Shown piece by piece: positions 2,335 to 13,014 of a stretch of DNA of 39,457 nt. The first letter of the stretch is position 1. The number at the start of each line of letters is the position of its first letter. The notes below the pieces were generated by a model that ran no database searches, was not told the DNA's origin, and worked only from the letters and a program-made list of their open reading frames with translations. The translations under genes and the position numbers were made by a program. Source of the DNA: Candidatus Komeilibacteria bacterium. Its GTDB lineage: Bacteria; Patescibacteriota; Patescibacteriia; UBA1558. The DNA lies in contig JBLYPX010000001.1 of the NCBI GenBank assembly GCA_048538235.1, forward strand, positions 745,554-785,010. Direction: 5' to 3'.

Positions 2335-3654
2335 ATGGAGTATAAAAAGGGAAATAGTTTTCTTATTAAATCATGGCCACGTGCTTTTCTGCACATTGAT
2401 GCAGATGCTTTTTTCGCCTCTTGCGAACAAGCCCTTAATCCAAACCTAAAAGGTTTGCCTGTTATTACAGGGGCAGAGAGGGGTATTGTGTCTGCTGCGA
2501 GTTATGAAGCAAAAGATTTAGGAATTGGCAGAGGCATTCCTTTGTGGGAAGTTAGAAAGATTTGTCCTGACGCTATTATCCTACCTAGCGATTATGAAAG
2601 CTACTCTTTAATATCTACACGTATGTTCGACATTATGCGTCGCTTTGTACCAGTGGTTGAAGAATATTCTATTGATGAAGGATTTGCAGATCTTACTGGT
2701 ATGCGTCGTCCTTTGCACTGCTCATACCATGAAATTGGCAGACGCATAAAGGAACAAATTGAGGTTGAGCTTGGTATTACTGTTTCTGTTGGTATAGCTC
2801 CAACTAAAAGCCTTGCTAAAATTGCTGCTAATATACAAAAGCCCTCTGGTTTAACAGTTGTGCCCGGAAGCTTAATAGAAAATCTCTTAGAAAAAACTCC
2901 TATCAATAAAGTTTGGGGCTTTGGAGAAAGTACAACCAGTTATTTAAAAAGGTTTGGCATTAAAACAGCTTATGACTTCACGCTTAAAAGTAAATACTGG
3001 GTTAAACAACATTTAAATAAGACTGGATTAGAAATATGGAACGAGTTAAGAGGACAAGCAGTATATGATATAGCTGATGAGAAGCACGAAAAGTATAAAT
3101 CTATTAGCAAGACTAAAACTTTTACACCGCCCTCTACTCAAAGAAACTATTTACTTGGACAAATGATACGCAATTTAGAATCTGCTTGTATAAAAGCCAG
3201 AAGACATAATTTGGTAAGCGATAGATTAGTAATATATTTACGTCAACAAAATTTTCAAAGCTCGGGTATTGAAATAAAACTAGATAGAGCTAGCAACTCT
3301 TCCCTGCTTATGACAAGTTCTTTAAAAAAAGCTTTTAAACAAATATGGGCACCCGGCACACCTTACAGATCAACTGGAGTGGTTCTAAGTAATTTAAAAG
3401 CAGATAATAAAATACAGGAATCATTATTTACAGATAAAGTTAAAGTTATAAAAATGGAACAACTAACAAATGTAATAGATATTATTAATAATAAATTTGG
3501 TAAACACACACTACACCAAGCGTCCAGTTTATCAGTAAATTTTACCAGTCGTGGTAATAGAGAAGCAAAGAGCAGTAAATGGCAAAACCTTCTTAAAGGA
3601 GAAAACTACAGACAGCATTTATACATTCCACGCTGGTCCATTAAAGCGAATTAA
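2335..3654 (+). CDS. dinB: Y-family DNA polymerase (DinB/UmuC)
   Basis: HIDADAFFAS, SYEAK and YSIDE motifs, HhH region and little-finger domain. Confidence 0.9.
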   Translation: MEYKKGNSFLIKSWPRAFLHIDADAFFASCEQALNPNLKGLPVITGAERGIVSAASYEAKDLGIGRGIPLWEVRKICPDAIILPSDYESYSLISTRMFDIMRRFVPVVEEYSIDEGFADLTGMRRPLHCSYHEIGRRIKEQIEVELGITVSVGIAPTKSLAKIAANIQKPSGLTVVPGSLIENLLEKTPINKVWGFGESTTSYLKRFGIKTAYDFTLKSKYWVKQHLNKTGLEIWNELRGQAVYDIADEKHEKYKSISKTKTFTPPSTQRNYLLGQMIRNLESACIKARRHNLVSDRLVIYLRQQNFQSSGIEIKLDRASNSSLLMTSSLKKAFKQIWAPGTPYRSTGVVLSNLKADNKIQESLFTDKVKVIKMEQLTNVIDIINNKFGKHTLHQASSLSVNFTSRGNREAKSSKWQNLLKGENYRQHLYIPRWSIKAN

Positions 3655-9145: not shown

Positions 9146-9598
9146 GTGCCTATGTTTAATTTAGGAAAAAGCAAAAAAAATAACGACATTGTCGAGAATG
9201 ACGACTTTTTTAATAAAGCTGCAGCTCAAACAGACGATAAATGGATCAATGAAGAAGATTATGAAGGTCAATTATCTGTTGATGTTTACGAAGATGGAGA
9301 TAATATTGTAATTAAATCTACAATCGCTGGCATTAAATCTGAAGATGTAGATATCTCTATTAATAATGAGATGATTACAATAAAAGGTAGGAGACAGCAA
9401 ACAGAAACCATAAATGAAGATAACTATTATTACCAGGAATGTTATTGGGGTGGTTTTTCTAGATCAATCATACTACCTGTAGAAATACAGCCAGATAAAG
9501 TAGATGCTTCATTAAAAAATGGCGTTCTAAAGATTGTTTTACCTAAAGCAAAGAAGTCTAAATCTGTCTCAGTTAAAGTTAATACCAGAGAAGCATGA
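9146..9598 (+). CDS. Hsp20/alpha-crystallin small heat-shock protein
   Basis: VDVYED..IAGIKSEDVDI..GGFSRSIILP..VDASLKNGVLKIVLPK. Confidence 0.92.
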   Translation: MPMFNLGKSKKNNDIVENDDFFNKAAAQTDDKWINEEDYEGQLSVDVYEDGDNIVIKSTIAGIKSEDVDISINNEMITIKGRRQQTETINEDNYYYQECYWGGFSRSIILPVEIQPDKVDASLKNGVLKIVLPKAKKSKSVSVKVNTREA

Positions 9599-9801
9599 AT
9601 TGGAGATTAATTAAGTTCTTAGACAATAACGCAGTCATTCAAAACGAAGATAATGAACAAATAATAATACCCCATCACCTATTACCAGCAGACTATAATA
9701 TTGGTGACGAGTTTACATTAAATTTCAATAAGGAAAATAACAACCTATCTGGAGATAAAGAAGCTATACAAATAATTAACTCTATTTTACAAACAGAGTA
9801 A
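9595..9801 (+). CDS. Small protein, DUF3006-like
   Basis: 68 aa, translationally coupled on both sides; AVIQ..IIIP..LLP..GD pattern. Confidence 0.55.
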   Translation: MNWRLIKFLDNNAVIQNEDNEQIIIPHHLLPADYNIGDEFTLNFNKENNNLSGDKEAIQIINSILQTE

Positions 9802-11633
9802 TGCTAAATAAAAAAACGAATGCAAATAGTTTTATGAGGTGGTTACTTATTATAGTAACCGCTTCTTTAGTTGTCCTCACTCTTATCCTAGCAGTAGGAC
9901 TTGGTTTGCATTATATATATAAGAATAAAATAATAGTTGGTGTTTATGCAGCCGAGCAAAACTTAAGTGGGAAAACAATAGATGAAGCTAAAGAAATATT
10001 AAGATCTTCTGTAGATAATTTTAAACAGTCTGGCCTTCATTATAGATATAATGATCATGCTGTAGATTTGCAAACAGATGTTACTTCCGCAGATTTAGAT
10101 AATGTGTACAGCCTAATAAGCTTTTTTCCCGATGAAACAATAGATAAATTATGGTTAATAGGTCATGAACAAGGTTATTTAAAAAACTACTGGCAGCAAA
10201 TAAGACATTTAATTATTCCCAAGCATTACGCAATAGTAATTGAAGCTAATAGCGATAGATTAGAAGAGTCTTTAAAAGACAACTTTTCACAATTTGAAAC
10301 CATCACCTCTTCTGCTCTACCGATTATAAACAGCAATGAAGATATTGAAATTACTGCTCATAAACTTGGTTTGAATTTTATATATGAAAATGTAATTGAG
10401 CAGACTATATACAATTCATCAAGATTAGATAATAGTACAATTGAGCTACAAAGGGAGATATTTTTTCCTACTGTTACCAGTAATGAAATAACTGACGATC
10501 AAGTAAATAGCCTTAAAGATTTTCTTAATGAAAATAAATATTTAACTTTGACATATAATGACAGAAATTGGAGTATTGATCCAGCTACATACAAACCTTG
10601 GATAATTTTTGATAAAAAAGATCAAAAAATAGTTTTAAGTTTAGATAAAAAACTATTCACTGAATACTTAGAAAGTAATGTAGCTAATATAATAGATCAG
10701 GAACCACAAGATGCTAAGTTCGACATTCAAAACGGTAGGGTGGTTGAATTCCAAAATAGTAGAGATGGTAGAGAACTTAATACAGAAGGAACCATTGAGC
10801 TAGTTAATACCAGCTTCTTTAACTCTGAAGACTCTACTTTCGGTTTAGTAGTGATCGAACAAAAAGCAAAACTTGCTGTTGGCGACACCAATGACATGGG
10901 AATAGTAGAAAAGATTGGTGAGGGTAGATCAAACTTTGCTGGTAGTCCAAATAATCGTGTACACAATATTCGAACAGGTGCAGAAGCTATTAATGGTTTA
11001 ATTGTAAAACCTGGGGAAACTTTCTCTTTAATAACAGCGCTTGGTCCAATTGATGGAGATCATGGCTATCTTCAAGAACTAGTTATTAAAGGAGACAAAA
11101 CTGTTCCAGAGTATGGTGGTGGTTTATGCCAAATAGGGACAACAACTTTTAGAGCAGCCTATGGTTCTGGCTTACCTATTGTTGAAAGAAGAAATCATTC
11201 ATACAGAGTATCTTACTATGAACCAGCTGGGACAGATGCTACTATTTATTCTCCAAAACCAGATATGCGCTGGCTAAACGATACAGATAGTAATATTCTT
11301 ATCCAAACAAGAATGGAAGGGACTGAATTAATTTTCGAATACTGGGGAACAAGTGATGGGAGAATAGCAACCGCAACTGAACCAAGAATATATAATATAG
11401 TTAGACCACCGGAAACAAAATATATTGAAACAACAGAATTAAAGCCTGGTGAAAAAAAATGTACAGAACGTGCACACAATGGTGCAGACGCTGAGTTTAC
11501 CTATACCGTAGAATATCCAGATGGTGAAATCAAAGAGGAAACCTTTACAAGTCACTATGTTGCCTGGCCAGAGGTCTGCTTAATTGGTGTTGATCCAGAA
11601 GAAGTTGTAGAAGAAAAAATAATTGAAGAATAA
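9801..11633 (+). CDS. VanW-family protein with peptidoglycan-binding domains
   Basis: N-terminal TM; VanW motifs NRVHNI, GGGLCQIGTT, VERRNHS, GTDATIY. Confidence 0.9.
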   Translation: MLNKKTNANSFMRWLLIIVTASLVVLTLILAVGLGLHYIYKNKIIVGVYAAEQNLSGKTIDEAKEILRSSVDNFKQSGLHYRYNDHAVDLQTDVTSADLDNVYSLISFFPDETIDKLWLIGHEQGYLKNYWQQIRHLIIPKHYAIVIEANSDRLEESLKDNFSQFETITSSALPIINSNEDIEITAHKLGLNFIYENVIEQTIYNSSRLDNSTIELQREIFFPTVTSNEITDDQVNSLKDFLNENKYLTLTYNDRNWSIDPATYKPWIIFDKKDQKIVLSLDKKLFTEYLESNVANIIDQEPQDAKFDIQNGRVVEFQNSRDGRELNTEGTIELVNTSFFNSEDSTFGLVVIEQKAKLAVGDTNDMGIVEKIGEGRSNFAGSPNNRVHNIRTGAEAINGLIVKPGETFSLITALGPIDGDHGYLQELVIKGDKTVPEYGGGLCQIGTTTFRAAYGSGLPIVERRNHSYRVSYYEPAGTDATIYSPKPDMRWLNDTDSNILIQTRMEGTELIFEYWGTSDGRIATATEPRIYNIVRPPETKYIETTELKPGEKKCTERAHNGADAEFTYTVEYPDGEIKEETFTSHYVAWPEVCLIGVDPEEVVEEKIIEE

Positions 11634-11758
11634 AAAAATACCCATTGAAGTGCAGACAAGAAAATCAGATTTGGAAGCAATTGAGCAAAAAGCCTAATTA
11701 GATCCAAGTTTGATCCCCATGCTTGTCGTGCCTGCACTTCAACAGGTACTTTAAGTAA
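11632..11758 (-). ncRNA. Candidate rod-shaped structured ncRNA of unknown family
   Basis: Own promoter TTGACA(11793-11788)-17-TAAGCT(11770-11765); 17-bp closing stem 11639-11655/11732-11748 plus inner stems; ends in U7. Confidence 0.55.
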
Positions 11759-11855
11759 TATAGGAGCTTAACACAGATATAATCTTTTGTCAAGACCTAT
11801 TATCAACAAGTGCTTAATAATTAGCTAATATTAGTCAAATACTAAGTATCTATTC

Positions 11856-11884
11856 TTGACAGAATATTAAAAATAGCATATACT
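11856..11884 (+). promoter_or_regulatory. rpmF operon promoter
   Basis: TTGACA-17-TATACT. Confidence 0.8.
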
Positions 11885-11918
11885 GTAAAAGCTTTTTTAG
11901 TAATATTAATAAATATAT

Positions 11919-12119
11919 ATGAGTGTACCGAAGAAACGAAGAACTAGCGGGTCAAAAGGTAAAAGAAGATCGCACTATAATAGAGCAGCTGTAAATTCAC
12001 AAGCTTGCCCTAAGTGTGGTGCTGCTAAACTACCTCACAGAGCCTGTGGTAAATGTGGCAACTACAAAGATAAAGAAGTTGTTAAAATAAAGTCTTCATT
12101 AGATAAAAAGAAGAAATAG
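11919..12119 (+). CDS. rpmF: 50S ribosomal protein L32
   Basis: [24 protein letters not shown]. Confidence 0.95.
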
Positions 12120-12147: not shown

Positions 12148-13014
12148 ATGTCCAACAGACACCTAGCAAGAACATTATCTCTACAAACACTATTTCAGTG
12201 GGATTTTAATGAACAGAAAGAAAATATAGACGACATACTTGCTTACAATTTCAAGGAATTTGCGGTAGATTTTGATGATGATGGTTTTAGTAAAGATTTA
12301 GTTAAGGGTGTTGTAAAGAATATTGAAGAAATAAATAAGTTAATAATAAAATTCGCACCGGAGTGGCCTCTTGATCAAATAACAACCTCAGATCGTAATT
12401 GTCTTAGAATTGGAATATATGAACTTAAATTTGATCAAACCATACCACCAAAGGTTGCTATCAACGAAGCCATAGAACTTGCTAAAACATATGGCGGAGA
12501 ATCGTCTGGTAAATTTATCAATGGCGTTCTAGGTTCTATCTTTAAAGAAATGGAAGTAAAAGGTGAGAAAACAAACATGGATGAAGTAATTAAAGAGGAA
12601 ACATCTGTTGGTGGGGTTGTGTATTATAAAGAAAAAGAAGACTATAAAATAGCTTTAATATTTAGCGCTCATGATAAATGGGCACTACCAAAGGGTCATA
12701 TTGATGAGAATGAAAATGAGAAAGAAACAGCTGCTAGAGAAATATCTGAAGAAACAGGTCTTACTAAATTAAACGTAAAAGATTATCTTTGTGAAACAAA
12801 AGTTAAAATAAAGAAACCAAAAACAACAACTGTTTTAAAAACAATTAAATTTTATTTAGTTGAGAGCTTGGACGATAAAATTATTGTACCAAATACTGCT
12901 GAACTTAAAGATGTTAAATGGTTTTCTCCAAAAGAAGCTTATGAAAAAACAGATTACGATAATGTTAGAGAAGCTTTAGATAAGGCATATAAAATTTTAA
13001 ACATTAAAATATAA
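12148..13014 (+). CDS. nusB: NusB fused to a C-terminal NUDIX hydrolase
   Basis: NusB motifs [13 protein letters not shown] and [20 protein letters not shown]; complete Nudix box [23 protein letters not shown]. Confidence 0.92.

Follow-up and report, generated by a model that had tools for sequence, protein, structure and literature searches.

An uncatalogued family of rod-shaped RNAs with an invariant core in Patescibacteria

Introduction

Two small bacterial RNAs are among the known systems closest to the element described here. 4.5S RNA (ffs, RF00169), the signal recognition particle (SRP) RNA, is a single rod, about 110-120 nt long, whose 5' and 3' ends pair; it is strongly and independently expressed and widely conserved. 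The additional bases of its asymmetric internal loop lie on the 5' strand, and its gene can adjoin transfer RNA (tRNA) genes. 6S RNA (SsrS, RF00013) is a long imperfect rod whose conserved interruption lies at its centre, and comes from a stand-alone, abundantly expressed gene. These traits recur in an RNA, here termed the rod RNA, which is encoded on the minus strand of a 39,457-nt stretch of DNA (the window) from a Candidatus Komeilibacteria bacterium (contig JBLYPX010000001.1, positions 745,554 to 785,010).

The Patescibacteria (Candidate Phyla Radiation, CPR) account for much of bacterial diversity and have tiny genomes and unusual ribosomes; their RNA biology is almost wholly uncharted. 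In the literature on non-coding RNA, SRP, 6S and structured RNA of the CPR we found no description of the rod RNA. Here we present an explicit consensus with covariation statistics, narrow the functional unit to a bulge module, and report a minimal copy on a phage-like element, support from metatranscriptomes and a weak lead to helix 34 of 16S ribosomal RNA (rRNA).

Results

The rod RNA has its own promoter and terminator

A sequence-only reading of the window had proposed an orphan rod-shaped RNA with a minus-strand promoter of its own, TTGACA-17-TAAGCT, convergent on vanW. The promoter was confirmed by direct read. Its 17-nt spacer has TGT at the end and thus provides an extended -10, and the arrangement TTGACA-17-TGnTAAGNT is kept in homologues. 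A generic promoter scan of the window did not list it because TAAGCT fits TATAAT at 3/6 positions only; the extended -10 TG and the conservation in relatives make it credible. The gene of about 120 nt runs from 11752 to 11633 on the minus strand, with the onset about 12 nt past TAAGCT. Its parts are:

11788..11793, minus strand: -35 box TTGACA, by direct read
11765..11773, minus strand: extended -10 TGT-TAAGCT, 17 nt spacer after the -35 box (TAAGCT at 11770-11765)
11729..11752, minus strand: 5' strand of the closing helix P1, varying in sequence, pairing co-varies
11713..11730, minus strand: 18-nt core CACGACAAGCAUGGGGAU, identical across syntenic homologues
11719..11728, minus strand: 10-nt bulge CGACAAGCAU on the 5' strand, facing a single unpaired U in minimum free energy (MFE) folds; putative functional site
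11684..11694, minus strand: apical hairpin GGC-UUUUU-GCU, invariant G.U then G-C
11657..11665, minus strand: 3' partner strand AUUUUCUUG, family consensus R-U-Y-U-U-C-U-U-G
11635..11656, minus strand: 3' strand of P1, from fold and covariation
11633..11639, minus strand: U7 tract, with P1 an intrinsic terminator, overlapping the vanW stop codon on the plus strand

The RNA folds from end to end, much as had been claimed. Its MFE was -50.5 kcal/mol compared with -24.6 ± 3.2 kcal/mol for 200 dinucleotide shuffles (ViennaRNA; z = -8.1), and none of the shuffles was as good. The 17-bp closing stem, the inner and apical helices and the U7 end described earlier are all present on the minus strand. 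The closing stem P1 consists of UACCUGUUGAAGUGCAG/CUGCACUUCAAUGGGUA, i.e. 17 bp with two G.U pairs included, and A-U pairs lengthen it to about 24 bp. The complementary plus strand folds more weakly by 10 kcal/mol, and in it the invariant G.U pairs would become C.A mismatches. Three features identify the minus strand as the functional one: the U-tract, the G.U pairs that never vary, and the direction of the flanking tRNAs in the phage-like contig described below.

The earlier remark that this is far more structure than a terminator needs holds: stem and U7 tract are there, but the element additionally has its own promoter, the invariant 18-nt core, inner helices that co-vary and a bulge that is conserved. 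The window contains no repeated copy or MITE-like spread (miniature inverted-repeat transposable elements) of the rod RNA, which is single copy by the covariance model R1 introduced below.

The rod RNA is a member of a large family

The first relatives were gathered through synteny alone, via the neighbouring VanW protein. In 9/9 syntenic loci in which the intergenic gap was kept, the same element was present on the same strand (VanW identity down to 44%); a more distant locus, L003 (44% VanW identity), had no rod RNA beside vanW. In the syntenic loci CACGACAAGCAUGGGGAU and the 3' partner (A)UUU(U)CUUG are identical. P1, in turn, has wholly different yet compensating sequences, e.g. CUGCCUACUAACUGCAG/CUGCAGUUAGUAGGCAG in L002, and the TGnTAAGNT form of the -10 is kept in L001, L002 and L005.

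Metagenome contigs were then scanned with the exact 18-mer CACGACAAGCAUGGGGAU, which gave at least 120 loci. At least 112 occurrences among the matches listed were members, having the 3' partner and flanking P1 pairing; 5 or 6 others among these matches were chance occurrences of the 18-mer. The family counts used below (n = 62, 101 and 107) were drawn from loci among the matches listed. Model R1 defines the family by the core CACGACAAGCAUGGGGAU, the 3' partner RUYUUCUUG, a P1 helix directly flanking both, and an apical GGY-loop-RCU hairpin, all of which the window copy has. R1 splits the members (at least 23 bits) from the chance 18-mer matches (at most 19 bits). The window copy scores 108.8 bits (E = 8e-29), a match by construction as it is in the seed alignment; independent members score 23-91 bits. 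The 18-nt core is letter-identical over lineages with a G+C content from about 36% to 62%.

The label 'orphan' must therefore be dropped, given a family of at least 112 retrieved members. The rod RNA is a member of a large uncatalogued family of Patescibacteria, plus one probable phage; the family appears to be restricted to Patescibacteria.

Pairing is conserved by covariation around an invariant mid-rod module

Covariation was tested on an alignment of 62 non-redundant members (A1). In this alignment 80.5% of the cells assigned to pairs were paired compared with 61.3% in shuffled alignments (0/500 shuffles as high). Double-sided changes were found in 609 cells versus 239 in the shuffles, and the covariation score was 0.525 as against at most 0.255 when the 3' partners were slid by 1-3 columns. 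Covariation, which the sequence-only reading had suggested checking, was strong. In P1, 22/24 pairs changed on both sides; the pair abutting the core was seen as G-C, G.U, C-G, U-A and A-U.

Within a rod of about 45-50 bp the mid-rod module is the sole sequence-invariant one. The bulge CGACAAGCAU sits between CA/UG pairs and a G.U-rich helix, GGGGAU/AUYUUC, with two or three G.U pairs in succession. The 3' partner occurs as AUUUUCUUG, AUCUUCUUG, AUUUCUUG or AUUCUCUUG. U-to-C changes opposite GGGG convert G.U to G-C; e.g., pair 38-104 is G.U in 41 and G-C in 21 of the 62 members. The apical hairpin GGY-loop-RCU has G.U in 62/62, then G-C in 57/62, and a third pair that is C-G in 31 and U-A in 25. 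The apical loop varies in sequence and length and tolerates big insertions (L032, L111). Most members measure 72-78 nt from core to core; apical insertion or loss widens the range to 45-151 nt.

The bulge is unpaired in the MFE folds of the window RNA and of 3/4 divergent members; a degenerate variant from contig L021 folds otherwise. The pairing ACAAG/CUUGU, which had been reported as part of the rod, can form, but it is one of two mutually exclusive pairings, and sequence variation, through the one-sided U-to-C changes, slightly favours the 10-nt bulge over it. The alternative CAAG/CUUG pairing, all of whose bases are invariant, is only slightly less probable.

Other observations concern the architecture. 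Members with apical insertions (L111:8430-8625, L032:798-949, L024:2430-2624 and L105) carry 30-120 nt in or next to the GGC...GCU loop. Tandem paralogous copies about 135 nt apart were seen in L041:210-463 and L063:8135-8420; both copies keep the core and differ in P2-P4, and the pair is conserved across these two related contigs. By eye, K-turn, loop E, tetraloop-receptor, box C/D and H/ACA motifs did not fit. A coding function was rejected: short open reading frames (ORFs) from the core AUG differ in length and end among relatives, and the invariance covers wobble positions.

Promoters and metatranscriptomes support a discrete transcript

Among 101 non-redundant loci a TTGACA-like/16-18/TAnnnT promoter lay within 110 nt upstream in 80. 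Of these promoters 76 have the exact TTGACA, at the position it takes in the window, and 78 the extended -10 TG. A U run of at least 4 follows P1 in 84/101 loci, most commonly about 20 nt after CUUG. The commonest variant of the rod RNA is present in many metatranscriptome runs, and the family is seen in metatranscriptomes of wetland, lake and wastewater. Contigs of 151-357 nt from four studies cover the rod RNA alone, with zero depth on the flanking rnj and diacylglycerol kinase (DAGK)-like genes. The coverage points to a discrete, stable transcript of comparatively high abundance.

A minimal copy resides in a phage-like tRNA array

A 5.2-kb contig, L019 (1-5246), carries 21 tRNA genes in one orientation. 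Its rod RNA copy of 82 nt (46.6 bits with R1, about 2431-2518, minus strand) fills exactly the gap between tRNA-Ile(UAU) and tRNA-Gly(UCC). Further ORFs of the contig encode an Acb2/Tad1 hairpin domain (1220-1471; E = 1.7e-16), a methyltransferase and an HNH-like protein. The Acb2/Tad1-domain ORF together with a match to PHROG marks L019 as a phage-like element; the hairpin ORF is of the anti-CBASS/Thoeris sponge type. Of the family structure, the copy has a P1 of 9 bp, the G.U helix, the bulge and, in place of the apical GGY/RCU motif, a plain hairpin. That the minimal copy retains P1, bulge and G.U helix argues that the bulge module is the part that matters. Evidently, the rod RNA can be matured by tRNA-processing enzymes.

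A degenerate short variant was seen in L021:3989-4079 and in L107. It has a span of 45 nt and the 3' partner AUUUUCUG, and lies beside methyltransferase, HNH-like and RuvC-like ORFs. These two loci may represent a second mobile or phage context.

By analogy with pseudo-ToxI, the rod RNA might be an inhibitor or antitoxin-like RNA which restrains a host enzyme, and which phages copy so that the enzyme does not fire during infection. The minimal, core-only copy of L019 near an anti-defence gene of the Acb2/Tad1 type would fit. We consider this the least probable of the readings discussed here: phylum-wide, syntenic, single-locus conservation and an invariant core are unlike the patchy distribution of defence and toxin-antitoxin loci, and a conserved adjacent toxin gene and a repeat array are both absent.

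The genomic neighbourhood is only partly conserved

The genes and sites around the rod RNA in the window are:

9146-9598, plus strand: hsp20
9595-9801, plus strand: DUF3006-like gene, 68 aa
9801-11633, plus strand: vanW-family ORF (vanW/PG_binding_4), convergent with the rod RNA, stop codon abutting the A/U tract
11824..11839, no strand: palindrome-like GCTAAnnTTAGC-type site between the rod RNA promoter and the divergent rpmF promoter
11919-12119, plus strand: rpmF, divergent from the rod RNA

The convergence with vanW stated in the sequence-only reading is thus correct. The genes for Hsp20, the DUF3006-like protein and VanW (9146-11633) form a widely recurring trio with overlapping ends. Directly downstream of rpmF lies a NusB-NUDIX fusion (12148-13014, plus strand), followed by rnc (RNase III); the fusion is also found in syntenic relatives. 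An exact GCTAANNTTAGC is located upstream of the rod RNA in several rpmF-linked relatives (L005, L008, L010), with one mismatch in the window copy. Among the rpmF-linked relatives inspected, this conserved palindrome, GGCTAAnnTTAGCC-like, lies between the two promoters at L005:5086-5097, L008:8013-8024, L010:8016-8027 and L020:7300-7311. The palindrome near 11824-11839 may be an operator for some regulator; its membership in the rod RNA unit is uncertain.

Across the family, 62-64/107 loci have a convergent vanW-family gene directly downstream, usually with hsp20 and the small DUF3006-like gene upstream of vanW. On the opposite side the genes differ among loci and include rpmF-nusB/Nudix-rnc, which the window has, and clpP or ruvB. 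A big separate group has rnj upstream and a convergent DAGK-like gene downstream.

The frequent vanW linkage raises the question of a local element, cis-acting or antisense, in the hsp20-DUF3006-vanW operon. A bidirectional terminator with a convergent transcript would then tune the expression of the operon or bind one of its products. With an A-run ahead of P1 and a U-run behind it, the element does have the shape of a two-way terminator. The DUF3006-like protein is modelled as a small beta-barrel with a disordered tail (predicted local distance difference test, pLDDT, 71), with weak matches to S1/OB-like (oligonucleotide/oligosaccharide-binding) folds and to the RsgI N-terminal domain; all of these fold matches are non-significant (E > 0.02). 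A terminator would need neither an invariant 18-nt core nor a conserved bulge, and the overlap with vanW mRNA is confined to the terminator. About 40% of the members reside elsewhere (rnj/DAGK, the phage tRNA array and others). Further, in L004 an additional gene parts the rod RNA from vanW, and the rod RNA stays beside rpmF. An operon-specific role is therefore hardly probable. A search for nearby mRNA targets complementary to the bulge returned scattered chance matches only.

A possible pairing of the bulge with 16S helix 34

Extended by one base on each side, the bulge yields the 12-mer ACGACAAGCAUG. It is Watson-Crick complementary at 11/12 positions to the universally conserved GCAUGGUUGUCGUC of 16S rRNA on L045, a contig which carries both a 16S gene and a rod RNA. 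The target is the 5' strand of helix 34 (C1054-U1065, E. coli numbering). Possibly, the rod RNA pairs there as a chaperone or checkpoint of the pre-30S particle, or as a silencer of 30S subunits. Of shuffled cores, 2/400 matched the L045 16S rRNA as well, and 11/400 matched 16S, 23S and 5S rRNA taken together as well. An invariant target would account for the invariant seed, and the location of the phage copy within a tRNA array agrees with a connection to translation. These points are balanced by others. The match was found post hoc among several targets tried, and energy-based duplex scores were not significant (p about 0.04-0.1). A central G.G mismatch breaks the duplex, and the target is base-paired in mature 30S subunits. 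A covariation test is impossible because both partners are invariant. To our knowledge, an RNA directed at helix 34 is without bacterial precedent. We consider pairing with helix 34 unlikely. Equally doubtful is the extension that the bulge displaces the native 3' strand of the helix, in the region of the decoding site and of tetracycline and spectinomycin, and that phage copies manipulate host ribosomes in this way.

The complementarity of the core to 23S and 5S rRNA was not better than that of shuffled cores. In L045 the 3' core UUCUU looks like the 16S sequence that follows CAUGG, but L080 has CCCUU there, and the likeness was dismissed as coincidence. The boxA of the local rRNA leader had no similarity to the rod RNA.

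No known RNA class accounts for the rod RNA

Rfam 15 gave no match at the gathering threshold in the whole window and none at E ≤ 10 in 11500-11950. Over 283 kb of member loci it detected rRNA and tRNA only. Of the three options initially offered, a miniaturised 6S-like RNA, an RNase III substrate or a new class, the last was the right one; the proposed check against known families left the novelty standing. The rod RNA matches no Rfam family and no paper that we found.

Might it be the lineage's own SRP RNA, with the Ffh site moved to the bulge module? In size, rod shape and paired 5' and 3' ends it matches 4.5S RNA, it is abundant and occurs widely, and the tRNA flanks in L019 make RNase P-type processing possible, as for 4.5S RNA. 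In addition, there was no canonical SRP RNA in the window or in 283 kb of member loci, a tiny and non-random sample. Against this, the SRP models RF00169 and RF01854 had no match even at E ≤ 10 (11500-11950). The lack of an SRP domain IV motif, noted from the start, was borne out in the window RNA and in the members. The apical loops (UUUUU, UCCG, UUCG, UUCGC and others, or insertions of 20-120 nt) vary and are not GNRA (GGAA) tetraloops. The symmetric AGG/AGCA loop for the Ffh M domain is absent from all members, the sole AAGCA being on the 5' strand inside the bulge. The phage copy drops the apical motif, and tandem duplicates exist. As far as is known, all domains of life, reduced genomes included, retain domain IV and the Ffh M domain; this also counts against an SRP RNA of this kind. 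Taken together, we regard it as very unlikely. A search of 1.03 Mb of fetched loci with a regular expression for SRP domain IV produced 3 chance-like matches, of which the one in L089 was not confirmed by Rfam. No ffh was found by tblastn in the fetched loci with an E. coli Ffh query sequence.

A miniature 6S-like promoter mimic on the RNA polymerase holoenzyme would use the bulge as template strand and P1 as 'downstream DNA'. A rod of about 45-50 bp interrupted in the middle has roughly a promoter footprint, the bulge would template a product beginning with AUG, and such an RNA would offer a phage a means of shutting down transcription in its host. The central bubble of 6S RNA is two-stranded. 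Here, a one-sided bulge of 10 nt faces a single U, and the 3' strand is otherwise fully paired. Members are as small as 82 nt (L019), and the covariance model RF00013 had no match at the gathering threshold in the window or at E ≤ 10 in 11500-11950. The suggestion of a miniaturised 6S-like RNA was therefore not supported; we consider such a mimic highly improbable.

Discussion

The best explanation of the data is a gene standing on its own whose product, a stable and strongly expressed structured RNA about 115-125 nt long, is probably a trans-acting housekeeping RNA with a role in translation or proteostasis. A core function rather than local regulation is suggested by the varied set of housekeeping genes nearby, by the consensus promoter and the signal in metatranscriptomes, and by the phage copy in a tRNA array. 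Transcription would start at the consensus -35/extended -10 promoter and end at the terminator formed by P1 and the U-tract. The RNA would act in trans as a housekeeping ribonucleoprotein or as a decoy. The bulge and the G.U helix may be the docking site for an extremely conserved partner, a core protein or the ribosome, most likely in translation or proteostasis; P1 and the apical domain would mainly be spacers, stabilisers and terminator. Phages may carry the stripped-down copy to supply the function or to hijack it.

Several points weigh against a housekeeping RNA. The proposed mechanism is read from anatomy and context. The metatranscriptome contigs are without strand information and DNA carry-over is possible; the variant of the window itself was in no RNA-seq run, and parts of the window locus were found only in DNA runs. 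The vanW convergence in about 60% of the loci could mean a local, operon-specific role. The invariance of the 18-nt core in the metagenome set is by construction, so that independent evidence for it comes from the 9 syntenic loci. Finally, a core housekeeping RNA would not usually occur as tandem duplicates, as this one does in L041 and L063.

The 18-nt core, the consensus promoters, the presence in metatranscriptomes and the phage copy are hallmarks of a core RNA on a par with SRP RNA, 6S RNA and transfer-messenger RNA, yet the rod RNA is none of these by its features. Knowing the partner would reveal a new housekeeping ribonucleoprotein or a new way of controlling ribosomes, and make the rod RNA a specific molecular marker of, and a handle on, a group which is very hard to culture.

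How does the rod RNA compare with known systems? From 4.5S RNA it differs by the missing GNRA tetraloop, AGG/AGCA loop and model match. Its conserved module is in mid-rod and not at the apex, which varies freely and is a plain hairpin in the phage copy. Compared with 6S RNA the bulge is one-sided with 10 nt, the length is 82-125 nt instead of about 160-200 nt, and a model match is absent. The Y RNAs, which bind Ro/Rsr, are similar: their paired ends make a long stem, protein presumably binds at a conserved bulged helix, and the distal module varies; phage Y-like RNAs are also known. They differ because the rod RNA is devoid of the Ro-binding consensus, a tRNA-like module, an adjacent rsr gene and an Rfam match. 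The OLE, ROOL and raiA RNAs are far larger and more complex, there is no common sequence or structure, and the rod RNA is apparently limited to Patescibacteria. With these three and with the 'species 1/2' RNAs of the T4 tRNA cluster, it shares covariation, an own promoter, lineage-wide conservation and the lack of a known partner. As with the stable RNAs of T4, one copy of the rod RNA sits in a phage tRNA cluster.

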